Shown piece after piece: positions 1,616-19,953 of a DNA stretch of 25,573 nt. Source of the DNA: an uncultured Methanosarcinales archaeon (GTDB lineage: Archaea; Halobacteriota; Methanosarcinia; Methanosarcinales; Methanosarcinaceae). The stretch's first letter is position 1. Every line of letters begins with the position of its first letter. The stretch spans positions 1-25,573 of the forward strand of contig CAYRGB010000002.1 of NCBI GenBank assembly GCA_964423715.1, given 5' to 3'. The position numbers were made by a program, and so were the translations under genes. The notes beneath the pieces are model-generated. The model was given only the letters and a program-made list of their open reading frames with translations. It was not told the DNA's origin and did not search any database.

Positions 1616-1746
1616 CTAGTCATTCACCCCATTATAACAACGATCATATTTTTATATGTACTGTTATTGACCTCTGAATCTCACAATACTTATATCATAT
1701 AATAATATAACTGAGTTCCATATTATTCTTATAACGATCTATCTGA
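1616..1746. promoter_or_regulatory. AT-rich divergent promoter region between asnB-like gene and aglB
   Basis: 131-bp AT-rich gap between divergent genes with TATA-like words (ttttatat, cttatat); exact boxes not resolved. Confidence 0.45.
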
Positions 1747-4239: not shown

Positions 4240-4439
4240 TCGCCCATCACCATCATATTTCACTTCTGGAGTTCGTACAGGTTTCACATCTCGCCGTCAC
4301 TCGCTCACCACGGGCACTCTTAGTTGCTTTCTTTATTCTGCTAGAGCACGACTCTGGTTATAAGTCAGAATCTCCCATAACTCTTCGATTTTACGTGATA
4401 GCGAGACTGACGCGGGTTCATGAGGAGCAATTCTGGAGG

Positions 4440-4859
4440 TCATGCTGTAAGGTCTTTCAATATATGCAGAGCCACTGGCTGATAGTCCAGGTATCTTGCC
4501 CAAGTCCCCTCAACAAATGCCAGCCTCGCTGGCTCGTCGCGGCTGAACAGTACGTCTCCGCGTGTGACCTCATAGCAGAACCCTATGGGCGCACGGTTTA
4601 ACAGTTTTACATCGATCGGATATCGTACATCACGTTCCAGTTGGGATGATAGTCCCATCTCATATGCAAGGGGGTCCTCTGGCCAGAGTGCTTCAGTCAC
4701 ATAAACTCCCACATCAATGTCATGGAATCCTTGCTGATCCACAAAGCTCCCAAAAAGGTATGCAAATAGGATCTCTTCTCTTGATCGCACAAGTTCTTCC
4801 AGGGATGCGGCGACCTCCTGTCTTTTCACAGCATCAGCTTCAAATGTTCTCTCACGCAT
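4440..4859 (-). CDS. mntA: Minimal nucleotidyltransferase (MNT) antitoxin, MntA-like
   Basis: 139 aa, YLFGS...DIDVGV, DVKLLN motifs; start overlaps the hepT stop (ATGCGTGA). Confidence 0.88.
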   Translation of the reverse strand: MRERTFEADAVKRQEVAASLEELVRSREEILFAYLFGSFVDQQGFHDIDVGVYVTEALWPEDPLAYEMGLSSQLERDVRYPIDVKLLNRAPIGFCYEVTRGDVLFSRDEPARLAFVEGTWARYLDYQPVALHILKDLTA

Positions 4860-5280
4860 GCGTATCCAGGTACTCTGTGATCTCAGTTATATACTCTTCA
4901 AGGTCTTCAATGTCATGGCTGAGAATGTCATACACTTTCTCATCGTCAATTTCCCAGTAGATATGCACAAGCATGTTACGAAATCGTGCCATGTTCATTA
5001 GCCTCTCAGCAAGTTCGCCTGATATCACACCTGCATCATGCAGGAGCACGAAACAATCAGAATAACTCTCTGGGGCACGTCTTAGATGGCGTGCATTGAT
5101 GTGGTTACAAATGGAGATGGCTGCCTCGATCGCGGTGACCAGCCGATATCTGGCCGAATCGATGAGATTTGGATCGGCTAGGAACTCATTCCGTGAGCGC
5201 GAAACGTCCCTCTATCTCATCAGTGCCTGGTGGATCTCATCGATCTTTGTTCCGATCATAACCGGGTTGATGTGTGCCAT
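4852..5280 (-). pseudogene. hepT: HEPN (DUF86/HepT) RNase toxin, 142 codons, in-frame TAG at codon 23 (5212-5214); nonsense allele or pyrrolysine read-through
   Basis: Manual translation from ATG 5280 (GGAGG RBS): MAHINPVMIGTKIDEIHQALMR*RDVSRSRNEFLADPNLIDSARYRLVTAIEAAISICNHI...RFRNMLVHIY (RX4HXY)... One frame throughout; the ORF track shows only the last 65 aa. Confidence 0.85.
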
Positions 5281-5541
5281 GATTCTAGCCTCCACTTATA
5301 ATATCCAATGATTATAGAATTTCCTTACATAAGTAATACACTATTGGCCCTGTGGATGGGATGATGTAGGTATTCATGATCACGCTTCTGGAGCGCGTAA
5401 CGAGGTATCTTCCTCCGGTCGGTGTTCCTTCGAGAAAATACCTCATATCCTTCCCTTATGACATATGCGCCCATATAGATGAACGTAGTGTATGGTCACG
5501 ATTGGGTTTTCCGTTACTGTATGAGTTTAGTTGACAATGCC

Positions 5542-5557
5542 AAAAAGTGTTATATAG
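5542..5557 (+). promoter_or_regulatory. Putative BRE/TATA promoter of the cas operon
   Basis: aaaaagtg-ttatatag, about 30 nt upstream of the cas6 ATG at 5584. Confidence 0.55.
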
Positions 5558-5583
5558 TATCGAATTTTTATATTGTTACTGAA

Positions 5584-6372
5584 ATGATATCTACGGTTGT
5601 AAAGATCGAGATCTCTACGCAGGGGATGCTTGGAGATCGATTTATAGGAGGTATTTTTCGTGGCTGGTTGGGCTACGTGTTGAAATGCGATAGGAAACGT
5701 TCGTGTGCTGCATGTGATGAGAGTTCTAACTGTCCTTATTTTATGGTATTTAAAGAAAAGACCGGTGTACGCCCATATTCTACGTTGGCCTTTGTAGATA
5801 GGGACAGAGTATCTGGTTTCATACGTCTGTATGGGGATAAGAGGAGATTTGCACCGAAGATCCTGTCTGCTATAAAGATGAAGGAGAAAAAGACCCATTT
5901 TGGAGGTCTCAGATATACGATCGATTCCATCGAAGCGAAGAACCAGGATATTAAAACCGTTGAACTGGGCAGCAAGTTGAAAATTGTAACAACATCGCTG
6001 ATGCATCTCACGCGCAACAAGATATTTGAGGTTATTCCCACGTTCAATACGATATTGCGTTCATCCGTCCGGTCGTATAACAGGATCGCTAAGTATCATG
6101 ATGAGAAGAACTATCCATATCATGTGGACAATGAGATCATGAATGTCGATGCGGAGATTTTGGATTTTGACGTACATACAATTGACCATGTACACACAAC
6201 CATGAATCATAAAAGACTGATCCTTTCCGGCATTGACGGTTGGATCACATATGATACCAGTGATATGCCTGAAGAGGTCGGTAAGATCCTGGGAATGGGA
6301 GAGGCATTACAGATAGGTAAGCATACCGCCTATGGGTTTGGTGGATTTATTGCATTAAGTCAGGAGGAGTAA
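5584..6372 (+). CDS. cas6: CRISPR pre-crRNA processing endoribonuclease Cas6
   Basis: C-terminal G-rich loop GEALQIGKHTAYGFG; N-terminal Cys cluster CDRKRSCAACDESSNC. Start placed at ATG 5584 because the ORF-track extension runs through the promoter. Confidence 0.92.
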   Translation: MISTVVKIEISTQGMLGDRFIGGIFRGWLGYVLKCDRKRSCAACDESSNCPYFMVFKEKTGVRPYSTLAFVDRDRVSGFIRLYGDKRRFAPKILSAIKMKEKKTHFGGLRYTIDSIEAKNQDIKTVELGSKLKIVTTSLMHLTRNKIFEVIPTFNTILRSSVRSYNRIAKYHDEKNYPYHVDNEIMNVDAEILDFDVHTIDHVHTTMNHKRLILSGIDGWITYDTSDMPEEVGKILGMGEALQIGKHTAYGFGGFIALSQEE

Positions 6373-6374
6373 GA

Positions 6375-8636
6375 TTGAGTGGAAATATAGGGGTGGTAGA
6401 TTGGTTTACGAAGAGTATCAGGGATGAAGTCATATATCCTGACCAGAGTGATCGTCAGCTCAAAGTGCTTATAGAGGATATAATTCGTGTTTTTGACAGT
6501 TCATCAACGAGATTGAGCAAGATCGCCAACGAGTTATATGACACACTGGAGCATAACGAGTTGCTGAACAGTATTGCTTCAGATTCAAGGTTTCCCATTT
6601 GTTCCCTTTTCCATCATCTGAAGAATACATCCGGAATAGCGGTATGCCTGCTGATCCAGAAAATTGATATTGATCCGGGATATGGTAGTAAAAACCTGGG
6701 AAAGTATGGGATATCCTTAAAATATGAGGAAAAGGATCTGGTATCGTTGATCAGGATCGCTGCCTTATTGCATGATATCGGGAAACCCCGTTCATTTACC
6801 CAGACTAAGAAATACCAACCATATCACTATCATACAACACAGAGCAGGGAGATAATTGAGCATATATTGTCCAACACAACGTCTCCTCTCGTGGAAAAGT
6901 TTGAACTGGATAAGATATTGCCACTCCTTGCATCCAGGCATCACTCACGAGATGCGACCACACCCCTTGAAAACCTGTTGAGTCAGGCAGATACGGTGGC
7001 ATCTGCTGCAGATAGGGTGAACGAGATCAACAGTTTTCTGGATAACAATACACTCACCGTCAAGTGCAATGACCGAATATTCCCTCATGAGATCAACTTT
7101 GATGCCGGGGACATGAAATGCCAGGAAACACCACATACTGTGATACTCGGAAATGGAATTACAGAGATCAGGAATGTGGTACCGAAGGATGCCAATGCAA
7201 AATATGCTAGATTGTTCATTGACCATACATCACACGGAGGTCCTGTACATTATCTCGGAAACCCTGGGAAACTTCCCGGTAGTATCGGTATTCTGTCCAT
7301 GGACATGATGGGCATACAGGGATTCATTGGTGAAGCCGACAAACTTAAGATGCTGCGTGGTGGCAGTGCTATTGTGGATGATGCATTAAAATGTGCAAAG
7401 GACATCATATCCAGAGAGGTTTGCAGTGAAGCTGTCCTGTTCTGTGGAGGTGGAAATCTCCTTTCATTCATACCGAACACGGATCATTACAGATCAATAA
7501 TGAAAGAAATGATCAAGAAGAAGGTCCGCGAAGTGTCCAAGAACGGATTGCATGGAGCAGTTATAACATTCGAAGAAATGCTATCCGATGTCGCAGGTAA
7601 ATTCGATAGAACACTGGAACATTCTCAGGATAAACTTGATATTGAGAAGAACATTACTCGAGAGCGGCCAACGATACCGAATACAAAGGATGTGTGTGGG
7701 TATTGTTTCAAGAGACCGAAACCGTACAGCTCTGATATGTGTTCTGCATGTAAAGTAAAAAATGATCGGGGAGAACGTGGTAAGTCCAATATATTTATCC
7801 AAGATACTCATGGTGCCCAGCGGCCGAGTGAACTGGCACATCTGGGTGATTCCATTGCTGCTCTGGTCATTGATGGAAATATGATGGGAAGGATGTTCCA
7901 GCAGACAACTACCCCTGCTGAGTATACCTACAAAAGCCAGATATTTGAATCAAGGTTCAATGGCATTCTCAAAAGAACGATCGATGATTTCTGTAATGAA
8001 CCATCTAGCTTAGATCTGATACTACATCATCACAATGGTCAGGAATTCCTTGGGATCGATGTCCTCTATTCCGGTGGTGATGATGTCCTGATACTGATGA
8101 ATGCCAAAGGGGCGCTCCAGTTCACAGAGCAATTGGTGAACAATGTCGCAGAGGAATTTACCTTTAAGAGTAAGTTCCATGATGGTACAGTGTTTAAGAA
8201 CCCCGTCATCACAATCTCTGCAGGTATCGCAATTGCAAATAACAGGTTCCCTATATATTTCCTGCTCAATGCAGCACGTGAGATGGAATCAGATGCTAAG
8301 AAAGCCTTCAGGAATGATACAAAAACTGATGATTTTGATTTTATTAAATTACCAGAAGGAGCGATGTCGGTAACTGCTATAAGTTCTGCAATGCCGGGAA
8401 AGGACCATGTATCCTTTGTGATCAAACGTGATGCAGAGAGTAAACACGATCTCAAACAACTTAAGAAAATGATCAGCATTGCACTGGACAAAGAGAAGTC
8501 ACGTGCGCTGGTGTCCGATCTGATCACCTGTCCACCATCCGAACGTGAACGACTGGATCTCATAAAATATATGTATTCATCAATACAGCGCAAGAGCAGC
8601 GATATCGGTCTTGATGAATGTGAATGGATGGCATAA
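6375..8636 (+). CDS. cas10: Type III large subunit Cas10 (HD nuclease + Zn finger + Palm cyclase); probably shortened by 28 codons by a premature TAA (full length 6375..8720)
   Basis: SLFHH, LLHDIGK, RHH, ADTVAS HD motifs; Palm1 GGGN; CGYC..CSAC; DGNMMG; intact GGDD (8073-8084). The frame stays open after TAA 8634-8636 to TGA 8718-8720, which overlaps the next ATG. Confidence 0.93.
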   Translation: MSGNIGVVDWFTKSIRDEVIYPDQSDRQLKVLIEDIIRVFDSSSTRLSKIANELYDTLEHNELLNSIASDSRFPICSLFHHLKNTSGIAVCLLIQKIDIDPGYGSKNLGKYGISLKYEEKDLVSLIRIAALLHDIGKPRSFTQTKKYQPYHYHTTQSREIIEHILSNTTSPLVEKFELDKILPLLASRHHSRDATTPLENLLSQADTVASAADRVNEINSFLDNNTLTVKCNDRIFPHEINFDAGDMKCQETPHTVILGNGITEIRNVVPKDANAKYARLFIDHTSHGGPVHYLGNPGKLPGSIGILSMDMMGIQGFIGEADKLKMLRGGSAIVDDALKCAKDIISREVCSEAVLFCGGGNLLSFIPNTDHYRSIMKEMIKKKVREVSKNGLHGAVITFEEMLSDVAGKFDRTLEHSQDKLDIEKNITRERPTIPNTKDVCGYCFKRPKPYSSDMCSACKVKNDRGERGKSNIFIQDTHGAQRPSELAHLGDSIAALVIDGNMMGRMFQQTTTPAEYTYKSQIFESRFNGILKRTIDDFCNEPSSLDLILHHHNGQEFLGIDVLYSGGDDVLILMNAKGALQFTEQLVNNVAEEFTFKSKFHDGTVFKNPVITISAGIAIANNRFPIYFLLNAAREMESDAKKAFRNDTKTDDFDFIKLPEGAMSVTAISSAMPGKDHVSFVIKRDAESKHDLKQLKKMISIALDKEKSRALVSDLITCPPSERERLDLIKYMYSSIQRKSSDIGLDECEWMA

Positions 8637-8716
8637 GTCCTGCTGAATAAGAAACTGCTGACCGCATCTCGCATGATCATACCGCACCTATGGCATAATA
8701 GTGAGGAGGGGATGGT

Positions 8717-9370
8717 ATGAACATCTGGAGAATTACCCTTGTAGCAACCAGCGATTTCCACACGGCAGGTGACTCAAAGGGTTCGACTGTGGACTATCTG
8801 AGGGATGCCGGTGATGTACCGTATATTCCAGGAACCCATGTTAAGGGTGTGATGCGCAGTGAAGCGGAACGTATCCTGCGCAGTGTGGAGGATGTTAAAT
8901 GCTGGGTTACGGGTGATCCTGATCAGGAGAATGTGTCTGAAACGAACAAACGGAAGATCCTGACCTGTGAACAGATATCAGGTACCCGATGTGATGTATA
9001 CAGTATATTTGGGTCCATCAATGACGGGGATGGATATATCGAGGGCAAGATCCGGGTGACCGATTTTAATGCAGTCAGAAAAGTAGTATCTGCGTCCAGG
9101 ATGCACGTATCCATTGACAGGGATTACATGTCGAACAGGAGTGGAGGATTGTATCGTACACGAGTTGTGCCCCGTAACACCAGTTTCATGGGACATATTA
9201 TCACACGTGATCTGACAGAGAATGAAGAAAAACTGCTATGGGCCAGTCTTCATTCGATGTGCCACTATGGACTCGGTGGAGAGAGATCACGTGGTCTTGG
9301 AAGTTTTGATATTGGATCAATGGAACGGATTGATCATGGTGAGTTCCTGCAAGGAGGTATAGGACAATGA
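8717..9370 (+). CDS. csm3: Cas7-group RAMP (Csm3-like)
   Basis: PYIPGTHVKG, IFGS, SIDR, GLGGERSRGLG; Asp retained at the predicted catalytic position (STVDY). Confidence 0.85.
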   Translation: MNIWRITLVATSDFHTAGDSKGSTVDYLRDAGDVPYIPGTHVKGVMRSEAERILRSVEDVKCWVTGDPDQENVSETNKRKILTCEQISGTRCDVYSIFGSINDGDGYIEGKIRVTDFNAVRKVVSASRMHVSIDRDYMSNRSGGLYRTRVVPRNTSFMGHIITRDLTENEEKLLWASLHSMCHYGLGGERSRGLGSFDIGSMERIDHGEFLQGGIGQ

Positions 9371-10464
9371 TCGAACTTACAGGCACACTCACAGCGGTGT
9401 CTCCCCTGCATATTGGTATGGGTAAAAAGAGCGGAACGTTTGTAAAGACCCTTGAGCACATACCTGGCAGAACGATACGTGGAATGGTCGGGTATTACCT
9501 GTACACGAACAAGCGCGAACTGTTTGATAAACTCAGGATCAATGAAGATATGGATATGAGTGATACTGGGGTATACTTCAAAGATGCTCTTCCAAGGTTT
9601 GATGACCATAATACGATTGCGTCTCCCATATCATTGAGATGGTGTAAGAAATGCGAGTATCTGATGGAATATAATGCAAAAGAATGTCATAATATGACTG
9701 ATGGCAAAAAATGCTTGCATGAAGGAAAGAAGGTCACAGGTTTCATTACATTAAAATCAGTAAGTTCAGGCAAACTTGAAAAGGCGCGGGTAAATATGCA
9801 GATATCCACAAAATGCCCGATAACACGTGATGGTCATACGAGTCCGGGTTTAGATTATGAGAGTTCTCCCTATCATATAGAGGGTATCGTTCCAGGTACA
9901 AAATTCGGATTCAAATGCCTGGTTGAGGATGAATATGTGGATGATCTTAAAGAAGCACTGACCGAGGCAGGTGTGTTTGCGGGCCTTGGCGGTTATCGAT
10001 CACGCGGATATGGTACTGTGGCATTTACGGATATGACGGAAACACCCGTGGACGATGTGATCCAGAAGAGAAGCAGTGAGATATCTGATATCCGGAATGT
10101 GATGATGGTCGCGAATTCTCCCATGATACTCAAGAATGATACCCTATCGGTCATTGGATTTGGGGATCGGTTCGAGGAATATGCAGCAAAGGTATCTACA
10201 TCAGGAAACTTGAGTGTAACCTGCATAATTGAACAGGGGGAGAAGGAGGATCAGGTGAAACAGCGGCTTACAGAAGGAATTGCAAGAGGGTGGTCCATAA
10301 AGGACAGGAATAAAGTGTCTGAGATCATTCCATGTATTGGTCATGGGAGTTGTGTGATGATCAAGGGCGATCCAGAGGTCCTTGCAACCCTTGAGATGTA
10401 CGGTGTCGGGGAGATGACCAACAGTGGATATGGTGATGTGTATTTCATGGAGGGTCAAATATGA
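9367..10464 (+). CDS. csx10: Cas5-group double RAMP, Csx10-like
   Basis: SPLHIG, TLEHIPGRTIRG, two G-loops (GLGGYRSRGYG, GVGEMTNSGYG), CKKC Zn motif; position after cas10-cas7 as in III-D. Confidence 0.75.
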   Translation: MIELTGTLTAVSPLHIGMGKKSGTFVKTLEHIPGRTIRGMVGYYLYTNKRELFDKLRINEDMDMSDTGVYFKDALPRFDDHNTIASPISLRWCKKCEYLMEYNAKECHNMTDGKKCLHEGKKVTGFITLKSVSSGKLEKARVNMQISTKCPITRDGHTSPGLDYESSPYHIEGIVPGTKFGFKCLVEDEYVDDLKEALTEAGVFAGLGGYRSRGYGTVAFTDMTETPVDDVIQKRSSEISDIRNVMMVANSPMILKNDTLSVIGFGDRFEEYAAKVSTSGNLSVTCIIEQGEKEDQVKQRLTEGIARGWSIKDRNKVSEIIPCIGHGSCVMIKGDPEVLATLEMYGVGEMTNSGYGDVYFMEGQI

Positions 10465-10943
10465 ATGATCTGATGCGAATGAATCAGTATTCATGGGAAT
10501 TGGCAACCCTTGCAATATTGAAAAAAGGTAGGGATGTAGAGGCATATTCTACAGATCAGATCAGGAGGGTCATGTCAGCTGGGTCCTCTGATGATCTGAC
10601 AGATATCCGCAAGATCATTAATAACTATTCGCCCGCATCACCACAGGGTAAAAAGAAATGGCAGGCACAGAAAGAGATCGGTGCTAAACACGAGGCGAAC
10701 AAGGCATTTGGTGACAGATTACTTGAGATCATAGCAGGGTCTGATGTTGTGGATGTAAGTCGGTTTCTCCAATATACGTTATGGAATATTAAGATCATTG
10801 AAAAAAACAATGTTGATGTATTGTCACGAGAGCTTGACTGTGAAGGTGTAACTGATAAAGAAGTTCTGAATCAGCTAAAGCAGATATTGGAAGCTGACAA
10901 GGGTCCAAGGAAAAATTATGAAAGGGATAACAGGAGGAAATGA
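10461..10943 (+). CDS. Helical CRISPR-associated protein, probable small subunit (Cas11/Csm2-like)
   Basis: 160 aa, charged and helical-looking, DQIRRV resembles the Csm2/Cmr5 SQLR motif; ATGA-coupled within the effector operon. Confidence 0.55.
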   Translation: MNDLMRMNQYSWELATLAILKKGRDVEAYSTDQIRRVMSAGSSDDLTDIRKIINNYSPASPQGKKKWQAQKEIGAKHEANKAFGDRLLEIIAGSDVVDVSRFLQYTLWNIKIIEKNNVDVLSRELDCEGVTDKEVLNQLKQILEADKGPRKNYERDNRRK

Positions 10944-11464
10944 TTATGGCTGTTGAGTTTGATAAAGACGAGTTGGGTAAGATCGTATTGGATTCCTATG
11001 ATCTGATGTTGAGTATACCCTATCCAAATAAAAAAGGCGATAAGTATGAGATCCAGTCCAGAAGCAAGTTGAAGAACCTGCCTGAAGCATTGCGCGAATT
11101 TGAGGATCCTCGATCAGCAGTAGTACATTTCGTGAAGAGTGCCTCCTATTTCCTACCGCGTTCGGGCAATGATCTGAATGATTTTCTAAGTATGCTACTC
11201 ACAAAAGTCCGGAAGATACAGGACGAAGAATCAGATCTGGAGAAGGTACGAGAAAAAATACGGTACCTTATTGGATACAGTAACTGGGGTATGGATGCGG
11301 TTTGCAATATCTTCAGTAAGGCTGGCAGAGATGATAAGATACGTGATAGATTACAGAACATGGTACGTGCAGAACTTCTGATCGTTGGTGAAGATGGGTC
11401 TGTCGATAGGATCGTCAGTGATATTATGCACTGGAAAGCAAAGGCTGACAGCAGGAGGTATTGA
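10940..11464 (+). CDS. Second helical CRISPR-associated protein, possible additional Cas11-like subunit
   Basis: 174 aa, amphipathic helical pattern, no RAMP or Csx19-like signature that I can see; ATGA-coupled. Confidence 0.45.
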   Translation: MIMAVEFDKDELGKIVLDSYDLMLSIPYPNKKGDKYEIQSRSKLKNLPEALREFEDPRSAVVHFVKSASYFLPRSGNDLNDFLSMLLTKVRKIQDEESDLEKVREKIRYLIGYSNWGMDAVCNIFSKAGRDDKIRDRLQNMVRAELLIVGEDGSVDRIVSDIMHWKAKADSRRY

Positions 11465-12198
11465 ACATGTTCAGGGAACTTGAAAACCGGGCAATACTAC
11501 ATTACAGGATCGTTACTCGGTCAGACCTGCATATCGGTGGGCATACTACGATCGAACCTGCTGAGGTGGACAATTCGGTCATAAAGGATACAGACGGTTA
11601 TCCCATCATTCCGGGAAGCAGCCTGAAAGGCGTGCTCAGGATCGAAATGGAGCGACTCCTCAGGAGCTTGGGTCTGAAGATATGTGATGTTAATGCAGGT
11701 GCATGCAATGAATGTGCGGTCTGCTATCTGTTTGGTGGAAAGGACCTTGCATCCTCCATACGTATCAGGGATGCAGTTGCTAATCACAAACGTACACTGA
11801 TCAGGGATGGCGTGGCCATCGATCGTAAGGCTCGAAAAGCGCGAGACGGTGGAAAATATGACACAGAGGTTGTGCCAAAGGGTACGGAATTCACGGGTGT
11901 TGCGACGATAGAGAACACCACACTAAAAGAGGTATATGAGCAGGCTAAACTTGGCGGTCTCCTGAGTTTGATAGATTTCTTCAATGCCTGTTGTGGAACC
12001 ATAGGCCACGCTTCTTCCCGTGGATTTGGAGAGGTTGACATTGAGATCGAGCGTATCCAGTTGATCACGGCACAGGATTATCTGGATGGCAGGTACGAGG
12101 GAGAGGAGTATCTGAAAGGTGGGGATGAGTATGACGAACTGAAAAGCAATGCTATTGCAGATTGGTCAGGGTTCATAAAGAGTGATGGACATGCTTGA
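11461..12198 (+). CDS. csm3: Cas7-group RAMP (Csm3/Csx7-like backbone RNase)
   Basis: LHIGG, EVDN (catalytic Asp position), PIIPGSSLKG, C-x-x-C Zn site, LFGG, RDGVAIDR, GHASSRGFG. Confidence 0.88.
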   Translation: MNMFRELENRAILHYRIVTRSDLHIGGHTTIEPAEVDNSVIKDTDGYPIIPGSSLKGVLRIEMERLLRSLGLKICDVNAGACNECAVCYLFGGKDLASSIRIRDAVANHKRTLIRDGVAIDRKARKARDGGKYDTEVVPKGTEFTGVATIENTTLKEVYEQAKLGGLLSLIDFFNACCGTIGHASSRGFGEVDIEIERIQLITAQDYLDGRYEGEEYLKGGDEYDELKSNAIADWSGFIKSDGHA

Positions 12199-13543
12199 TT
12201 TTGATACTTTTGAGAATCGATGGGAGATCACGGCAAAGCTGACAATGGTCACTCCCCTTCGTATTGGGGGCGGGCAGAATGCAGGTGCTTATTCCATGTC
12301 ACAGAGTCCGGTGCTACTGTCTTACGATGCCCAGACACAGACCGCTGAACCGTATATTCCCGGCAGCAGCCTTAAAGGTGTGTTGCGAAGTACGGTGGAG
12401 CGTATCGTGAGAACGATCGACGAGAATGAGTCATGTATTGCTGTGGGGAAGCGTGACAAGGTGCTATGTGGAGATTGTGTGTCCTGTTCCATCTTTGGTT
12501 CACAGAAAAAGGGTGCCAGTATCAGGGTTCAGGATGCTCATCTATCAACAGAGATAGGGTCCGGAGGAGTATTGGATGAACGGCCACATTGTGCAACGAT
12601 CTATGACAAGAAGGGAGATGAATATGTCATGCGGATGCGAACACAGGGTAGGGGTGGCAGATCGTTTGAGGTTCCTAAGACTATCCTGCGTATGGAAGAG
12701 GTCGTGGCTGCCAATACATCATTTGATCTTAACATTAATCTCGACAATGCGGATGAACATGAAGTAGGACTTGTGTTACTTGCCCTGAACGAGTTCAATC
12801 ATAAACGTTCCTGTCTGGGAGGCGGTACTTCCCGCGGGAATGGATTTGCGGATATGAACCATGTTCGAGTAACCAGAAAAAGGGTTGTTCCGGATGAAGA
12901 TAGGTTGTTCAAAGTGGAATCGGAACAGATGGATCCTTATATGTTCTGTGATTCGGCGAGAGATTATCTAAGGGATATGGACAATGGACAGGATGTTACC
13001 CGGCGGGATTTCGATGTATATTACCGGGCATATTCATCAGAGCGTCAGGAAGGTCATCTTGTGATACAGTATGAGGTCGAGACCCTTAATGATTTCCAGA
13101 TGCCCGGGGCGGATGGGGCTACTGTCACCAATTATGGTGTGCCAGTGATCCCTGGATCTACGATCAAGGGATTTCTGCGCCATAGCCTGATCGAGGCTGG
13201 CAGGGAAGCGAAGTTCATCGATGAAATGTTCGGATCGGTGAACGGTCAGGCTCAACACCGATCCCGCCTGCTGATATCAGATGCTTTTTCTGATACGGGA
13301 TTTTCAGGGCATGACATGATCCCGGCGGGCACGATATTGACTATGTGGGCGGTGTTTGACAATGTTGATAAGGATGAGCTGGGAGCGATCAATGAGATAC
13401 TGAAAAAACCATCCTGCAGGATTACGGGGAAGAAAACCGCAAATACGGACAAGAGAGGTCAGTCCTCCCGCAACACGGTTAGTTTCCGGGCGAAAGATCT
13501 GAGCAAGTTCGAAGTGTCCAAATACCTCAATGACCAAATATGA
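12191..13543 (+). CDS. Cas7-Cas7 fusion RAMP (Csm5-like distal subunit)
   Basis: Two RAMP starts: PLRIGG..PYIPGSSLKG..IFGS..LGGGTSRGNG, then PVIPGSTIKG..MFGS..RLLISDA. First domain lacks the catalytic Asp and second lacks a G-loop. Start could be 12182, 12185 or 12191. Confidence 0.75.
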   Translation: MLDFDTFENRWEITAKLTMVTPLRIGGGQNAGAYSMSQSPVLLSYDAQTQTAEPYIPGSSLKGVLRSTVERIVRTIDENESCIAVGKRDKVLCGDCVSCSIFGSQKKGASIRVQDAHLSTEIGSGGVLDERPHCATIYDKKGDEYVMRMRTQGRGGRSFEVPKTILRMEEVVAANTSFDLNINLDNADEHEVGLVLLALNEFNHKRSCLGGGTSRGNGFADMNHVRVTRKRVVPDEDRLFKVESEQMDPYMFCDSARDYLRDMDNGQDVTRRDFDVYYRAYSSERQEGHLVIQYEVETLNDFQMPGADGATVTNYGVPVIPGSTIKGFLRHSLIEAGREAKFIDEMFGSVNGQAQHRSRLLISDAFSDTGFSGHDMIPAGTILTMWAVFDNVDKDELGAINEILKKPSCRITGKKTANTDKRGQSSRNTVSFRAKDLSKFEVSKYLNDQI

Positions 13544-14046
13544 GGTATTGGATAGCATTTATTGGATCAAGTCCATTTGCAGTGATCAATACTATTTGGG
13601 CAGCGTGCAGGGAAGCTGGGTATGTTCCTGACCACGCTGTGTTCATGATCAATAGGGAACTTAACGAAGAATGGATAGATATTGTAAGACATTGGGTTCC
13701 CCGGATACTCGAAGAGTATGGGGTCGAAGATCCATTACTCTCAACACATATGGTCGAGGAAACCGGATTCCAGATGATCTGTGAGGAGTATCGGGCACAT
13801 TTGTTTGATCTTAAGGCGAATGATGAAGTTGCAGTGGACATCACACCCGGTAGAAAGTATATGTCTGCTATTGCTATGGAAATGGGATTGTCCATGAATG
13901 CGGATCACGTGTATTACCTACATCTGACGGATAATCGATACCATAATATTCCATATCCTATTGTCCCATTGCATCGACACGAATTGATCGATATGAAGAA
14001 GGAGTTCTGTAAAGTAGGAACGAATAGGGCGGTGCTGGATGAATGA
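13540..14046 (+). CDS. Stand-alone CARF-domain protein (cOA sensor or ring nuclease)
   Basis: 168 aa; N-terminal strand-GSS (IAFIGSSPFAVINT) and VDITPGRK CARF motif II; no fused effector domain. Confidence 0.75.
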   Translation: MRYWIAFIGSSPFAVINTIWAACREAGYVPDHAVFMINRELNEEWIDIVRHWVPRILEEYGVEDPLLSTHMVEETGFQMICEEYRAHLFDLKANDEVAVDITPGRKYMSAIAMEMGLSMNADHVYYLHLTDNRYHNIPYPIVPLHRHELIDMKKEFCKVGTNRAVLDE

Positions 14047-15083
14047 TCGTACCAAAGGACTATTTTGTGGCGTTGCTCAATGAACTGTCCCGGAATTCGG
14101 ATCAGGTTGTTGTGAAGTATCCTCCAATAGGCACGATCTTTACCATTAAGATGGATGAAACGTGTGCCTTGTATCCTATGCCAAAAGAGGAGTTCAAGCA
14201 CCTGAGAAAGAACCTGCTTGATCCTTGGCATAATGATAAGTTCATTTCAGATGAGATCCCTACGGATATGGATCTGGTGACCTGTCTTTATGCATCTTCG
14301 ATACTGCGGTCTGAAGAAGAATCATCTCTTAAGGATAAGTTGCAGGAAGGATGCCAGCGTAATTTGTTGAAAGGGGACAAGCCACTTTTCGTTGGTTATG
14401 ATACCAATTCTCTACGGCATAGAAGTAATCGTGTAGTTGCGAACATTCTGTCAGAACTACCACGGGATTCTGCAGCGAACATGGGATTTTGCCTGAACGA
14501 GAGCGTTAAGACTGAATTGAGGTACAGGTGGAATCATAAATATAAAATGCCGGATGTAAACACACTCGGCAAGGTTCACCGGCAAGCCCGTACATTTTTA
14601 AATCAGCATCCGAAGGATGCACGTATGGCTCGTCTGGGTGCTGTGGAGTATAAGCATATCATGACACAACCAAATTGTGTGGAGATCAACGGCAGGGGAT
14701 ATGGTGATAACAAGATCGTCCGATCATTTGAGTCATTTCGGGATAAACGCAATGTGGACATCCTTTTGATCAGTGGGGACAATGATTTTACTGCAATGGC
14801 CCATGAGGAGAAAATGAATGCGTTGTATATGAAGCAGCCAACAAATTATAGTACGGAACTTGAGGCTTCATGGGAGCAGGTCGTTGAGTTGCTTTATTGT
14901 GTTGCAGTGGTTTTTGGTCATGTGTTTATTAATGACATCGATGTGTTTGGGATATGGACCGGCAAAGTGGAAGATGACTGGGATGGATACAGGGTATCCA
15001 TTGATCCTTCTAACAGGGATCTGAAAGGAGATATGTTCAGGGATATCAGGATACTTGAGAAGGGTGTACATGATACGGTGTGA
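14043..15083 (+). CDS. PIN-domain nuclease with N- and C-terminal extra regions
   Basis: 346 aa; PIN acidic tetrad pattern VGYDTNSL, NESVKTEL, GDNKIV, LISGDNDF; ATGA overlap with the CARF gene. Confidence 0.72.
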   Translation: MIVPKDYFVALLNELSRNSDQVVVKYPPIGTIFTIKMDETCALYPMPKEEFKHLRKNLLDPWHNDKFISDEIPTDMDLVTCLYASSILRSEEESSLKDKLQEGCQRNLLKGDKPLFVGYDTNSLRHRSNRVVANILSELPRDSAANMGFCLNESVKTELRYRWNHKYKMPDVNTLGKVHRQARTFLNQHPKDARMARLGAVEYKHIMTQPNCVEINGRGYGDNKIVRSFESFRDKRNVDILLISGDNDFTAMAHEEKMNALYMKQPTNYSTELEASWEQVVELLYCVAVVFGHVFINDIDVFGIWTGKVEDDWDGYRVSIDPSNRDLKGDMFRDIRILEKGVHDTV

Positions 15084-15140
15084 TCAATGGGTTGGAGGGT
15101 CATGGATATTACAATTTCTTCTTTAGATGGGTGATCGTGA

Positions 15141-16610
15141 ATGGTAAATGTTCTAAAAGAGATCAAAACGAGAGTGGATGCATCGGATCGTCAGTTCGTA
15201 CTGGAGGCAGTGGAGCGGTTCGAAAAAACATCTGACAGGGATGAACTTCTAACTATATCCTCAGAGATGTTCTCCTATGAAAAAAAATATGTTTCTACTT
15301 ATCAGGGTAATTGTGATGTTCTGATCAGTACGGTAGGGATGCGTGAAGCTCCGATCATCCTATCTCATCTTGCGATCAGGCCCAAAAGGAGTATATTGTT
15401 GCATACGGTTGGTTCAGAGGGTATTGCTGAGAAGGTCATGGAGGATTCGGATATAAAGGATATTGGGATCGAGTTCACGCCGGTGCAGATCGATGAAGTG
15501 GATGCTGCTTACAATTATAACTGACTTAAGGAAGAGGTGCTGCCAAGAATCGGTAATCGCCAGAATGTACGGACGGATCCGACGGGGGGCAGGAAGATCA
15601 TGGGTACAGCTGTGGGTTCCTTTGCATTCCTTTTCAGGATACCAATGGTCTATCTGCATGCAGAGGAGAAAATGGGGATCAGCGTTCCATTTAGCGGGAA
15701 GATCAGAGATATTGAAAATCCATATGAGTATTATGGCGATATGGATATGCAGATATTGAAGAAGAACTTTGACAGTGGATTTTTCGATCCTGCACATGAC
15801 GTCTGTGAACAATTGCAGAAGAATGTCAGGGATCTTGCACTGGGCAAGAAACTAGATATGCTTCAGGACCTGATAAAGATATATTGTGATTGGGATGGCT
15901 TTTTGCATAGCAGTTTTGCTCAGAATGCAAAGGGACGAAAAGAGGAGTCATATCTCGCACAGAGGCTTGAGGCGGTATATGAAGAATGTACCAGATATGG
16001 TATTATTCTTGTAAAGGAAGAAGAACTAAAACAGAATATTGAGTTCCTTAAAGAAATTGATAAGCACTGGAAATCGGGCTCCAATATTGTGGACCGATTT
16101 CGTCTAGTGGACCTTTTCCTAAACGCAGAACGTCGGGCAATCCAGGGTAAATATGATGATGCAACTGCTCGGTTATATCGTTGTATTGAGATGTGTGCTG
16201 TTCTTTTGATGGAAAAGGAAGGTATTTTCGATATTAAAAATCCTGATTATGAAGATTTTGCAGCAAAGCATAATATGGATAAAGATGACTTGTTTTCCAA
16301 GTTCAAAGATCTGTCTACTTTTGACAGTCCGAGAACTCCACCAGGTTTGAATGATATAATGTTAATGCTGCAGGTTGTTAATATTCCAGCTGCACATATG
16401 TATGCTCGAATGAACAGGACAGATGAGGAGGAGGAAAGTCTGCGGGATAAAAGGAATCGTTCCCTGCTTGCTCATGGTACAAGTCCGATTACAGCAGATG
16501 ATTACAAAGTTCTTCTTTCAGGGACGAAGAAAATTATTGGTAGTACTCTGGGTAAAAAAGAATTCAAACAGCTTGCCAATCAGGCCAGTTTCCCCACTTT
16601 AATGATCTGA
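15141..16610 (+). pseudogene. CARF-HEPN cOA-activated RNase (TIGR02710/Csm6-Csx1-like), 489 codons, broken by in-frame TGA at codon 128 (15522-15524)
   Basis: ORFs 15141..15524 and 15537..16610 share one frame: ...STVGMREAP...DAAYNYN*LKEEVLPRIGNRQNVRTDPTGGRKIM...RNRSLLAHG (HEPN R..H). Confidence 0.85.
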
Positions 16611-16611
16611 T

Positions 16612-17622
16612 ATGAGGTCTGCAACCCCGCAAACTCTCCATATCAGTGGTTATGGAAAGAAATTGAAAAAACGCAATAATCTACTGGTTGTGGAGTGGAA
16701 TGTTGATGGTGAGAAGAAGTCGTTATCCTTCACACCGTCCACTCTTGAGCATGTGATCATTTCGGGCGAGCATTCGGTCAGTACCGGTGCTATGAGGCTT
16801 TTTTTCGAGGAAAACGTAAGTTTTTCATGTCTGGATAAGTCTGGTTATCCATTAGGTTTTCTTTTTCCCCACCGCAGATGCATGCATGTGGATGTGTGGG
16901 AAAAACAGCTTATGATGAATGAAGTGGATGCTCTGCGTATTGCAAAGACGATATGTATAGCTGCTGCAAAGAACAAGATGTCGTTGTTGAGGTCGCTGCA
17001 AAGGAGTAGGGATATCGATCTTGAAGTATTTATCAAGAATGTGAACGATGTAATAAAAAACATGCATGATGCTGATGATACATCCAGTTTAATGGGCTAT
17101 GAAGGTAATTCGTCAAGGATATATTTCGATGCTTATCGGAAAATGATACCTGCGGAGTTTGGTTTCGAAAATCGGGTCAGACATCCTTCTCCAGACCCTG
17201 TGAACGTGATGCTCAACTATGGTTATGGTATCCTGTATTCAAAGGTCCGTATGGGTCTAATACAGGTGAATCTGAACCCCTATCGTGGAGTTCTGCATGC
17301 ATCATACAGGGATCAGGAAGCTCTCGTCTATGATCTCATCGAGGAGTTCAGGCAGCCAGTTGTGGACAAGACCGTCCTGACGTTGATCGGCAGGAAACAG
17401 GTTTCTCCAGGATCATTTTCAATTGAAGGTGAGATGTGTATGATGGATGATCATTTTAAGAAGGAATTTGCAGATCATATACTCACACGTCTGGAGAGCA
17501 AGACGAAATATGATGATAGCACTGAATCGTTTCAGGTTATCATTGATCTTCAGGCAAGAAGACTCAGGGATGCTATCATGAATTGTGAGGATTATGCACC
17601 TTTTGTCTATAGAGGACGGTGA
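16612..17622 (+). CDS. cas1: CRISPR integrase Cas1
   Basis: GYEGNSSRIYF, DPVNVMLNYGYGILY, GVLH, LVYDLIEEFR; no RT or Cas4 fusion. Confidence 0.96.
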   Translation: MRSATPQTLHISGYGKKLKKRNNLLVVEWNVDGEKKSLSFTPSTLEHVIISGEHSVSTGAMRLFFEENVSFSCLDKSGYPLGFLFPHRRCMHVDVWEKQLMMNEVDALRIAKTICIAAAKNKMSLLRSLQRSRDIDLEVFIKNVNDVIKNMHDADDTSSLMGYEGNSSRIYFDAYRKMIPAEFGFENRVRHPSPDPVNVMLNYGYGILYSKVRMGLIQVNLNPYRGVLHASYRDQEALVYDLIEEFRQPVVDKTVLTLIGRKQVSPGSFSIEGEMCMMDDHFKKEFADHILTRLESKTKYDDSTESFQVIIDLQARRLRDAIMNCEDYAPFVYRGR

Positions 17623-17909
17623 GCATTACCACATCGAAATACCTGATAGTTGCTTATGATATAGAGAAGAACCGAACAAGAACAAAGATCTCAGAACTTC
17701 TCCTGTATTATGGCCTGATACGAATACAATATAGTGTATTTGCCGGTGAGGTACAATCATCCAAGATGGACAAACTCTCATCTGCCTTATTTAGTATCTC
17801 AATTGCCGATGACGACAAAATAATCATGTTCCCAATCTGTGAGAACTGCCGTAACAATATCAATACGACAGATGAGTTACCCAAAAAGCTAAAGCACCTA
17901 TCCATATAA
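17619..17909 (+). CDS. cas2: CRISPR-associated Cas2
   Basis: IVAYDI, RIQYSVFAG, ICENC; GTGA overlap with cas1. Confidence 0.95.
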   Translation: MSITTSKYLIVAYDIEKNRTRTKISELLLYYGLIRIQYSVFAGEVQSSKMDKLSSALFSISIADDDKIIMFPICENCRNNINTTDELPKKLKHLSI

Positions 17910-18229
17910 TCCTTCCACAACTTCCTAAATTACCATACCTTTTTAAGGGGTATTGCTAAAGGGGGGTCTGTCACTTATTTGTAGCACATAAACAATCTAT
18001 TATACACAGGCATGTACAATTCACTCATACAAACATTCACTAATATATATCAATGATGGCGCAGTATGATGGTTCACAAATTGCATTAATCTTCAAATCA
18101 CTCCGTCTTTTGATGGCGGTTTACCAGATCTTTATAATGGGTTTTAGCAAAAATAGGTCTGCACAAACACCCCTAAAATCGGAGCATTCTCAAACGCTCA
18201 AAACTGATTTAAAGGATAAAATATATAGT
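17910..18229 (+). promoter_or_regulatory. CRISPR leader
   Basis: 320-bp AT-rich non-coding stretch between cas2 and the first repeat; fixes array orientation as +. Confidence 0.75.
17929..17951 (-). repeat. Degenerate partial CRISPR repeat in antisense orientation
   Basis: Minus strand ACCCCTTAAAAAGGTATGGTAAT vs repeat 3' part ACCCGCGAAAATAGGGTATGGTAAC; 10-nt exact GGTATGGTAA plus ACCC and AAAA. Confidence 0.55.
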
Positions 18230-18629
18230 GTTGAATGTAGAACCCGCGAAAATAGGGTATGGTAACAGTTTTGTTCTGGCTTCCTCCACAAATCCAGATT
18301 CGTTGAATGTAGAACCCGCGAAAATAGGGTATGGTAACTGTGTGTTTTCACGCGATCCAGTAACCCATCTGGCAGTTGAATGTAGAACCCGCGAAAATAG
18401 GGTATGGTAACAGCTTGAATAAATATAAACCATAGAAAAACATTAGTTGAATGTAGAACCCGCGAAAATAGGGTATGGTAACGCTCCTGCGAACACCTGA
18501 GACGCATGGGGGGTTAGTTGAATGTAGAACCCGCGAAAATAGGGTATGGTAACCCATTATTCCACCCGCCTGAATTTGTCGCCAATTTTTGTTGAATGTA
18601 GAACCCGCGAAAATAGGGTATGGTAACCT

Positions 18630-18761
18630 GAGTTCCACGCAAAAGTAGATGCAGGAAAAATGTCAGCAAACTATGCTACATTGAACGATCATCATGAGGC
18701 ATGGAGTCGGGTCGTAAAGGATATACCATATCTGCGATATATTAGAACTGAGGTGAAGTGA
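18630..18761 (+). pseudogene. 3' fragment (43 codons) of a foreign gene cut off at repeat 6
   Basis: EFHAKVDAGKMSANYATLNDHHEAWSRVVKDIPYLRYIRTEVK*. The frame is closed upstream by TAA inside the repeat, and its end carries the GAGGTGA RBS of the next gene. Confidence 0.55.
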
Positions 18762-18762
18762 T

Positions 18763-19020
18763 ATGGGTGCAATCGCCAAAAAATTAACCGGTGATGAAAA
18801 GGAATATGTGCTTGATGGGGAAGAATGGCTCCGTTCAACGATGTATAACCTTACGTGTATGAGATGCAAGCATTATCATCCATATACGGATCCTGAAACC
18901 GTCAATACCTGCAACGCATACCCAGACGGGATACCCCTCGAAATTTTAGAAGATAAAGTGGATCACCACAAACCATACAAAGGAGATCACGGCATCCAGT
19001 TCGAACCTCGCGATGTTTGA
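18763..19020 (+). CDS. 85-aa Cys/His protein of probable viral origin embedded in the CRISPR array
   Basis: ATG with GAGGTGA RBS (18750-18756); CMRCKH...CNAYPDGIPLEI...DHHKPYKGDHGIQFEP. From memory this resembles small prophage proteins next to head-morphogenesis (MuF) genes; unverified. Confidence 0.8.
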   Translation: MGAIAKKLTGDEKEYVLDGEEWLRSTMYNLTCMRCKHYHPYTDPETVNTCNAYPDGIPLEILEDKVDHHKPYKGDHGIQFEPRDV

Positions 19021-19061
19021 ACCTAAGGACGAGTGATTTCTTTTCTTATTATATTGTGGCT

Positions 19062-19113
19062 TTGTGTATTAAGTATGACTTGTGTAAAAAGTCGTAATTT
19101 TGTGTAGAAAGTC
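19062..19113 (+). repeat. Three imperfect 14-bp direct repeats, consensus TTGTGTANNAAGTM
   Basis: TTGTGTATTAAGTA (19062), TTGTGTAAAAAGTC (19080), TTGTGTAGAAAGTC (19100). Confidence 0.6.
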
Positions 19114-19202
19114 AAAGCAAAAAAACCAATACGTTGAATGTAGAACCCGCGAAAATAGGGTATGGCAACTTTGAAAAAGAGATTAAAGATCTCTAAAAGT
19201 CC

Positions 19203-19238
19203 GTCTGTCTTAGATAGTACAAGAAGTATGTATAGAAC
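19203..19238 (+). repeat. Possible highly degenerate terminal CRISPR repeat
   Basis: 33 bp after repeat 7; aligns at 19/37 positions with one gap (GT...TAGA...GTAT.G-AAC). Confidence 0.25.
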
Positions 19239-19335
19239 AAAAAAGGACAGCGGCCGCAAATTTAAGGACCACTCATAATCAAAATAATAGAAGTAATGAA
19301 TACGTTGTATATTTTTTTGCACGAGGCATATTCCA

Positions 19336-19447
19336 GTCCGCTTGAGCGCTAGCGAGACGGACCGCGCCCTCCCGAGGCGCGACTCGGGGGCCTGGGACTC
19401 GGGCACTTTGGCGCTACATACAAATACCATTGGATAGAACCTATTCA
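19336..19447 (+). other. GC-rich structured element, probable 5' UTR of the aksE/leuD operon
   Basis: Stems GTCCG/CGGAC, CGCGCC/GGCGCG, CCCGAG/CTCGGG and TGGATAG/CTATTCA; TATA-like ttgtatat at 19305-19312. Confidence 0.4.
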
Positions 19448-19461
19448 TCAGGTGAGAAGCA

Positions 19462-19953
19462 TTGGATAGCACGATCAAAGGACGAGTGTGGATCTTTGGT
19501 GACGACGTTGACACGGATGTGATCATACCCGGAAAATATCTGAGGACAACGGACATGCAGGTCTTTGCCGATCATGCCATGGAAGGTATCGATCCGGATT
19601 TTTCTACAAATGTGCAAAAGGGTGACATCATCGTTGCAGGCAACAACTTCGGCTGTGGTTCCTCCCGCGAGCAGGCGCCCTTGGCGCTTAAATATGCAGG
19701 TGTAGCCTGTGTGGTGGCAAGGACCTTTGCACGCATATTCTTCCGCAATGCCATCAATGTGGGTCTGCCCCTGATGGAGGCAGATGTGTTGTGCAAGGAA
19801 GGGGACATGATCGACGTGGACCTTGCTAACGGGAAGGTCGAGGTGAATGGTTCCACTGTTGAAGGAAATCGGCTACCCGATTTCTTGCTGGAGATCCTCA
19901 CAGATGGGGGGCTTGTTGAGCACCGCAAGGTCCAGCAGAAGCAAAAGAGATAA
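19462..19953 (+). CDS. aksE: Homoaconitase/isopropylmalate dehydratase small subunit, probably AksE (HacB) type
   Basis: [39 protein letters not shown]; the YLRT loop matches the methanogen homoaconitase small subunit. TTG start with GGTGA RBS. Confidence 0.8.

Follow-up and report, generated by a model that had tools for sequence, protein, structure and literature searches.

In an uncultured Methanosarcinales archaeon, the last slot of a CRISPR array is occupied by a 505-bp segment of viral and transposon DNA, which carries the 3' end of a head-morphogenesis gene, a complete 85-amino-acid (aa) gene and one end of a transposon. The array is located on contig CAYRGB010000002.1 of assembly GCA_964423715.1, a metagenome-assembled genome (MAG) of 1.41 Mb in 262 contigs that is 78% complete. 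The window, i.e., the whole stretch of DNA analyzed, is this entire contig (C2; 25,573 nt, 25.6 kb). We propose, with a probability of roughly 60%, that the segment is a genuine, passive pseudo-spacer of mobile DNA held in the oldest slot of the array, the DNA being either contiguous in its source or the remnant of a deletion.

CRISPR array and its 505-bp slot

The 37-nt repeat is present seven times on the plus strand, starting at positions 18230, 18302, 18375, 18446, 18517, 18591 and 19133, and the first six copies enclose five unique spacers of 34-37 nt. Between repeats 6 and 7, two repeats of the same array and the same orientation, lies foreign DNA that far exceeds spacer length. No degenerate repeat was found inside the insert: the best sliding match is 18 of 37 positions, which equals the 99.9th percentile of the remaining contig, and the 505-bp gap therefore does not consist of decayed repeats. 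The initial annotation, which was made from the sequence alone, had described repeats 6 and 7 as 505 bp apart after five normal spacers and with no repeat between them, and the repeat coordinates and the sliding comparison both agree with that description.

The direction of the array is set from left to right by the cas genes, the conserved leader and the 3'-degenerate last repeat. The leader motifs (Table 1) are also conserved ahead of the initial repeat of six related arrays (G090, G086, G011, G112, G128 and G091), which have related repeats or a related Cas1 and belong to other genera of the same family, and the terminal repeats of related arrays are 3'-degenerate in the same way as repeat 7. 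Given this direction, the insert is in the oldest slot and, as previously noted, all its features are sense to the array. Spacer 5 ends with a run of five T (18586-18590) directly before repeat 6; runs of this type are terminator-like signals in archaea and could reduce transcription into the insert. An Rfam search of positions 17800-19500 returned nothing, and when the repeat, the tail or the start region was folded as RNA, the structures were no better than those of shuffled controls.

Viral genes in the insert

The reading frame at the left junction is homologous from its codon 2 onward to the C-terminus of large viral proteins. The tblastn matches comprise two IMG/VR loci (L025 and L027) and proviral genes in three genomes (G102, G110 and G104; 55% identity over 40 aa), and all of them end just 5' of a homologue of the small gene that follows in the insert, which is the same synteny as in viruses and proviruses. 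A full-length relative of 482 aa matches Pfam Phage_Mu_F and the PHROG minor head and head morphogenesis families, and scaffold-like and major-head genes are found downstream of it. The insert was said to start mid-gene at the repeat edge; the gene in question is MuF-like and is cut at repeat 6, such that at the left edge the mobile-element homology reaches the repeat.

The small gene is intact and its 85-aa product retains every residue that is invariant in its family, which includes 71 IMG/VR loci and 7829 cluster representatives in a large protein library. When the insert was compared with IMG/VR and archaeal proviruses, viral or proviral matches were obtained for both genes. Across all collections searched, the closest relative of the small protein is 64% identical. 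The domain that precedes the small gene in the 482-aa protein is encoded directly 5' of the small gene in 15 of 75 viral loci, and some members of the family are fused to the C-terminus of MuF-like proteins. For instance, protein P0034 contains Phage_Mu_F at 149-246 and the small domain at 550-604. The small protein belongs to PHROG 33375, a family of unknown function; Pfam gave no match for it, its neighbours in the Atlas and BFVD are uncharacterised Uroviricota proteins, and its AlphaFold model (predicted local distance difference test score, pLDDT, of 76.7) matched nothing in the PDB by Foldseek or VIA-align. The closest small-protein homologue is encoded on a public 598-nt metagenome contig (L144), of which positions 580-598 are untrimmed Illumina adapter.

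The earlier claim of a complete 85-aa gene with a strong ribosome-binding site is borne out by the intact open reading frame (ORF), the invariant residues and a 7-nt Shine-Dalgarno (SD)-like match at 6-nt spacing. Such a 7-nt match precedes only 1.8% of the long ORFs in the MAG, with the anti-SD sequence assumed from general archaeal 16S rRNA, the MAG being without the 3' end of its 16S gene. A toxin-immunity reading of the gene pair was also considered. In MuF polymorphic toxin pairs (Jamet et al., 2017; PMC5576092), immunity is the task of a small downstream protein that is always separate from the toxin. This reading was rejected, since members of the present small-protein family occur as fusions with MuF-like proteins and the C-terminal region has no recognisable toxin domain.

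Transposon end at the right junction

Downstream of the small gene the insert is non-coding and, as described initially, AT-rich (Table 1). This tail differs from what adjoins the small gene downstream in related viruses. By the layout of its motifs, a terminal GGCTTTGTGTA with three direct 12-mers (TGTGTAnAAAGT) behind it at intervals of 18 and 20 nt, it holds one end of a DDE transposon or miniature inverted-repeat transposable element (MITE) family that is native to the lineage: the same layout is found twice on MAG contig C15, on MAG contig C217 and in 18 of 176 other genomes of the family, and a reversed control pattern gave zero matches. The transposon family is commonest in one genus (eight of 10 genomes). 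Paired units bracket gene sets with 9-bp target duplications in two other genomes (G006 and G028) and on C15, and the gene sets of G006 and G028 include a DDE_Tnp_1+SWIM transposase. An inverted fourth copy of the 12-mer is often present in the family, and the 9-bp target duplications are CATCATAAC, CCAAAATCT and GCTGGTAAC.

Neither an inverted right arm, nor a 9-bp target duplication, nor a transposase was found in the insert or its flanks. Because the other transposon end and the target duplication are missing, an element is interrupted at the right junction too. Homology to the transposon end extends to about position 19112, and the last 20 nt of the insert are without assignment or weakly leader-like. 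Both ends of the insert, judged by what they interrupt, thus appear to be arbitrary cuts, with a MuF-like gene on one side and a transposon end on the other.

Several further features of this transposon family were observed. Its cargo includes a pair of genes for an AAA ATPase and a subtilase, and loci of the family are seen at L018 (3700-10360) and L019 (3820-11950). On C15 (6380-7700; L002/L003), an ORF with an N-terminus that is Mrr-like by eye only lies between two MITE-like units. In G197 (G197:C26:40754-40865), six tandem 20-nt units, each consisting of the 12-mer and an 8-nt linker, form an iteron-like array, which suggests that the 12-mer is a putative protein-binding site.

Table 1. 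Positions of the predicted features on the plus strand of the window, in the order in which they occur.
Feature	Position	Strand	Description
CRISPR-Cas island	4246-19333	+	15.1 kb; small toxin-antitoxin-like ORFs, type III cas genes, array, 164-nt trailer
cas6	5479-6372	+	Pfam CRISPR_Cas6, E = 2.8e-10
cas10	6375-8636	+	HD and palm domains; Pfam Cas10-Cmr2_palm2 and HD
cas1	16612-17622	+	Pfam Cas_Cas1, E = 2.9e-71
cas2	17619-17909	+	Pfam CRISPR_Cas2, E = 4.2e-18
Leader	17910-18229	+	TATA-like TTTATAA at 18131, AAAATAGGTCTGCACA at 18150, ATTTAAAGGA at 18207 just before repeat 1
Repeats 1-6	18230-18627	+	Identical 37-mers with five spacers of 35, 36, 34, 34 and 37 nt
Pseudo-spacer	18628-19132	+	505 bp between repeats 6 and 7; oldest (leader-distal) spacer slot
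MuF-like gene, 3' end	18627-18761	+	Final 44 codons of a head-morphogenesis gene of the MuF-like type (SPP1 gp7 / Mu F); truncated at repeat edge; TGA stop at 18759-18761
SD-like GAGGTGA	18750-18756	+	7-nt match, 6 nt 5' of the ATG
85-aa gene	18763-19020	+	Large tailed-phage family; three invariant Cys, one His, KPYKGDHGIQFE-type motif
Non-coding tail	19021-19132	+	112 nt, 70% AT; T-rich run at 19037-19047
DDE transposon/MITE end	19058-19112	+	Terminal GGCTTTGTGTA, then direct 12-mers (TGTGTAnAAAGT) at 19063, 19081 and 19101
Weak resemblance to a leader-repeat junction	19109-19132	+	Position weight matrix (PWM) score 7.95 bits; true leaders 14-28 bits
Repeat 7 (terminal)	19133-19169	+	One change, T34C; 36/37 identical to repeat 6

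Comparison with related arrays and genomes

The nearest relatives of the Cas1 encoded next to the array (54-62% identity) serve six arrays (G090, G086, G011, G112, G128 and G185), which together contain about 130 spacers, all of 34-47 nt, and no oversize insert. The comparison with arrays of related genomes that accompanied the initial annotation as a check has thus returned normal spacers only; the integrase clade is not generally sloppy and the insert is a one-off. No closer Cas1 was found in the genome-contig scan, the order-wide search reaching at most 62% identity, and no Cas10 was found in G128 or G091 with the Cas10 of the window as the query.

The small gene is present in 27 of 176 other genomes of the family. 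In all three genomes of the genus, a copy of it stands in sense orientation at most 33 nt from a CRISPR repeat, which is of type III in the window and of type I-E in the other two; among 33 other copies inspected with 2.5 kb on each side, only one is near a CRISPR array. The congener repeats are 29 nt long, I-E-like and of a different type from the repeat of the window. In G001 (L014, G001:C99, 984-1110), a frameshifted remnant of the gene's final 30 codons begins directly at the edge of the last repeat in an array of 17 repeats. In G002 (L108, G002:C104, 358-633, minus strand), 33 nt separate one degenerate I-E repeat from a downstream 67-codon copy without the conserved C-terminal motif, and no further copies of that repeat were found in the genome. 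A multi-copy element of about 90 nt, also present on four G000 contigs, lies just 3' of the gene at L108 (182-274).

In G091, which belongs to another genus, the copy (L137, G091:C12, 1700-2700) is full-length and about 1.5 kb from a 43-repeat array of the same I-E repeat: the array is followed by 720 nt, relB, relE and then the gene on the other strand. Relative to G091, the block in G001 (small gene, relE and relB) is inverted and cut off at the repeat edge, and looks like an inversion with one breakpoint at that edge. Such an inverted block flush with a repeat would be expected if recombination had taken place between a spacer and an inverted target close by. Two independent associations between the gene and CRISPR loci are suggested, one by the I-E island and one by the type III array. 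These associations favour recombination between arrays and viruses in the lineage, and the decay of the congener copies argues against selection for their expression.

Proposed origin of the insert

The gene content described above suggests that the insert came from a tailed virus or provirus with a transposon-hit head module, a resident provirus being the more likely source. We infer the mechanism of insertion as well as the transcription, processing and lack of function of the insert. In the route that we propose, the head module of a tailed virus or provirus would have been hit by a DDE transposon or MITE before capture, and pre-existing spacers would have recombined homologously with matching viral or proviral DNA. 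A double crossover at two spacers would exchange the spacer-repeat-spacer unit for the intervening viral DNA and leave junctions flush with the repeats. Equally possibly, the 505 bp would be the deletion remnant of a larger insert, of which one end supplied the viral part and the other the tail. The insert differs between its first and last 35 nt, and for this reason a circular virus that entered by a single crossover and was then partly deleted was rejected as the only route.

Several observations weigh against this proposal. The junctions are known from one MAG contig alone. The 85-aa ORF is fully intact and has a strong SD-like sequence, which a very old neutral relic need not have. The 24 nt preceding repeat 7 weakly resemble the end of a leader (7.95 bits). 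No close donor was found in the collections searched, the best small-protein relative being the one at 64% identity; blastn of the insert against phage records gave no match, and no other copies of the viral genes are present in the MAG. Among the relatives, none is known to have the transposon end after the small gene, and the 505 bp may or may not have been contiguous in a donor. Lastly, no spacer of this array or of seven related arrays matches the insert or its gene family, and the pre-existing spacers that recombination requires are not in evidence. The five spacers and both insert ends had no matches in the MAG or in any examined locus, the cores of four spacers had none in IMG/VR, and the spacers of G091 (two arrays), G001, G128, G090, G086, G011, G112 and G185 gave only chance matches of 15-17 nt to the insert and the viral loci.

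Of the other routes, the best supported is a single misintegration by Cas1-Cas2, to which recombination is slightly preferred. An untrimmed 505-bp viral or proviral fragment would have entered a single-repeat array at its leader-proximal repeat, the repeat would have been duplicated, and the five spacers would have been added later; the outcome would be identical, and the two routes differ only in how the DNA entered. Flush junctions with complete repeats, arbitrary cuts at both ends, intact cas1 and cas2 genes 320 nt upstream of repeat 1 and the position in the oldest slot, as for a first acquisition, are all consistent with such an event. It is nevertheless disfavoured by the roughly 130 spacers of the nearest Cas1 clade, all of which are 34-47 nt long, and by the ruler of Cas1-Cas2, which is known to disfavour long substrates. 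No sequence feature tells misintegration and recombination apart, and on balance we regard the former as possible but rather unlikely. Faulty protospacer processing is also among the scenarios discussed by Jaubert et al. for a comparable insert (PMC3718332), and the initial annotation had listed both long Cas1-Cas2 acquisition and spacer-protospacer recombination as candidate origins, the same pair as proposed for that case.

It is improbable that two loci are joined here, in which case repeat 7 would be the sole survivor of a second leader-repeat module, and the 505 bp would comprise the trailer of the first array and an eroded, transposon-hit leader of the second. Such an arrangement would fit the composite make-up of the insert (a viral part, a transposon end and a leader-like piece), the remnants of the same viral gene in the array trailers of congeners, and the score of the 24 nt before repeat 7 against the leader-end PWM, a score of 7.95 bits being reached at a genome-wide frequency of 2.3e-4 per position, with five shifts tried. 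True leaders, however, score 14-28 bits, the TATA-like box and AAAATAGGTCTGCACA are absent before repeat 7, and the 3' change of repeat 7 is typical of a terminal rather than a first repeat. Two joined loci would also leave unexplained why viral coding sequence starts exactly at the edge of repeat 6.

An assembly chimera, in which the 505-bp segment was misjoined or was threaded through a collapsed 37-nt repeat from a same-repeat array of another strain or organism, is quite improbable. CRISPR repeats are classic assembly traps, the MAG is fragmented (262 contigs, 78% complete), and the junctions are supported by a single assembly. Searches for sequencing runs with stretches of 1501 and 691 nt listed none. 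Neither the repeat, sought as an exact match in metagenome and genome contigs, nor a 28-mer of the insert, sought likewise in metagenome contigs, was found, and there were no identical proteins on record for Cas2 or LeuD. To be threaded through the repeat, the assembly would nonetheless need a segment bounded by the repeat on both sides in real molecules, such that the order repeat-505 bp-repeat would exist somewhere, and a MuF-like gene interrupted halfway by a repeat would be incompatible with a functional virus. On both flanks the contig is, moreover, collinear with two congeners, and no other contig of the MAG carries the repeat or the viral genes.

Two further candidates were rejected: a transposon or insertion sequence (IS) inserted into the array, of which only one end is present and neither a transposase nor a 9-bp duplication, and a prophage integrated in the repeat, for which there is no integrase, no phage attachment end (the left end being in the middle of a head gene) and no other such viral gene in the MAG.

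Possible expression of the insert

If the leader promoter reads through the T5 run and Cas6 cuts 8 nt before the repeat ends, an RNA of 542 nt (8 + 505 + 29 nt) would be released; the arithmetic behind the product of about 540 nt predicted earlier therefore holds. Maturation in type III systems trims long RNA intermediates from the 3' end and keeps the tag and about 35-45 nt. With such trimming, the type III complex would keep the 8-nt tag and about 35-45 nt of the insert, the remainder being lost. A guide of this kind shares the sense of the viral mRNA, with which it would be unable to pair and against which it would be useless. Translation of the ORF before trimming is no more than a possibility.

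A domesticated gene cassette, in which the array promoter and Cas6 would provide a translatable 542-nt RNA and the 85-aa protein would benefit the host, e.g., by blocking head assembly of related viruses, is very improbable. The intact ORF with all its family-invariant residues, the 7-nt SD match at ideal spacing that is rare in the MAG, the orientation sense to the array and the copies that, throughout the three genomes of the genus, stand in sense no further than 33 nt from a CRISPR repeat would each be expected of a cassette. The congener copies, however, are a frameshifted 30-codon fragment and an ORF without the conserved C-terminal motif, the T5 run at the end of spacer 5 precedes repeat 6, and type III maturation is known to trim long intermediates. 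The protein itself, from a family of unknown function, accompanies MuF-like head proteins in viruses as an accessory or is fused to them as a domain. The least probable of the ideas considered is that the ends of CRISPR arrays in this genus may be recurrent capture-and-expression sites for one viral head-module gene, the protein of which, made from a translatable RNA that array transcription and Cas6 could supply, would hamper assembly of related capsids. If true, capture and expression would constitute a second, protein-based layer of immunity written into the array.

The CRISPR-Cas island

The array, its cas genes and a set of small ORFs form a horizontally acquired island (Table 1) that is missing from two genomes of the same genus, where only 45-68 bp separate the aglB side (positions 1-4242 of the window) from the leuD side (position 19335 onward) (G001:C29 and G002:C127). 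The flanks of the contig are collinear with these two congeners with the island in between, which indicates that the large-scale assembly is sound. Besides those listed in Table 1, five RAMP genes and CARF- and HEPN-type genes are found on the plus strand 5' of the array. The cas1 and cas2 genes are intact and 320 nt separate cas2 from repeat 1; with adjacent cas1, cas2, cas6, cas10 and RAMP genes and a conserved leader, the locus is type III-associated. In cas10, translation encounters an in-frame stop, 27 codons short of the point at which the frame would enter the next gene (window 8634-8717), which could be a late nonsense mutation, and the CRISPR system may therefore be eroding.

Short GC-rich or structured sequences are found at or near the borders of the island (19335-19403, 4329-4436 and 5378-5421). 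They recur at many sites in two congeners with 76-96% identity and are possibly small repeated elements that mark insertion hot spots.

Relation to known systems and significance

In the prevailing view, the Cas1-Cas2 ruler holds spacers to a narrow range of lengths, and gene-sized inserts between intact repeats are accordingly very rarely reported. We found one published archaeal precedent, SiL-E1 in CRISPR_2 of Sulfolobus islandicus LAL14/1, in which a conjugative-plasmid fragment of about 2 kb with five ORFs lies between identical repeats (Jaubert et al., 2013; PMC3718332). The authors used the term pseudo-spacer for it, knew of no earlier example and considered the mechanism unclear, with faulty prespacer processing or recombination with pre-existing spacers as the possibilities (PMC3718332). 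In both cases gene-bearing mobile DNA far over spacer length is found between repeats of an otherwise ordinary archaeal array, and homology to mobile elements extends up to the repeat edge, which in the window is shown for the left edge. SiL-E1, however, is located mid-array in the finished genome of a cultured strain and has 82%-identical donors, whereas the insert described here is 505 bp long, consists of a virus head module and a transposon end, is found in the final position of a type III-associated array, comes from a MAG and is without a close donor. Unlike in SiL-E1, the last 20 nt before repeat 7 are also not accounted for.

Recombination between spacers and protospacers has been described for phages and the CRISPR loci of staphylococci as a route to CRISPR transduction (Varble et al., 2019, as recounted in a review, PMC8616872). 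Such recombination joins viral DNA to an array precisely at a spacer, with viral sequence running on flush from the repeat-spacer unit, which resembles the arrangement in the window; it was not described there as a stable double-crossover product within an array, and matching spacers are not in evidence here. In Streptococcus pyogenes, prophage phiAP1.1 is integrated in a CRISPR repeat (bioRxiv 10.1101/2020.10.09.333658), such that viral DNA is likewise bounded by CRISPR repeats within an array. That element is a whole prophage with its own integrase and an att core inside the repeat, whereas the insert in the window is without an integrase. Like the insertions of IS elements and transposons that occur in arrays, the tail contains the end of a transposon family active in the lineage; unlike in those insertions, the rest of the insert is viral and its boundaries coincide with the repeat edges.

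The present evidence does not show a new function for CRISPR arrays. The present case is the second archaeal example of a rare kind, and it comes from a different phylum-level lineage, from a different CRISPR type and with legible donor DNA, in which the end of a head gene, a whole gene and a transposon end can be read. It lends support to the idea that long DNA is now and then acquired by arrays, whether via recombination with their targets or via integrase error, and it bears on the exchange of DNA between CRISPR loci and viruses as well as on the treatment of "long spacers" by array-detection software. The locus also provides a defined substrate, i.e., its own Cas1-Cas2, its repeat and DNA of 35 bp vs. 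505 bp, for separating the two mechanisms.

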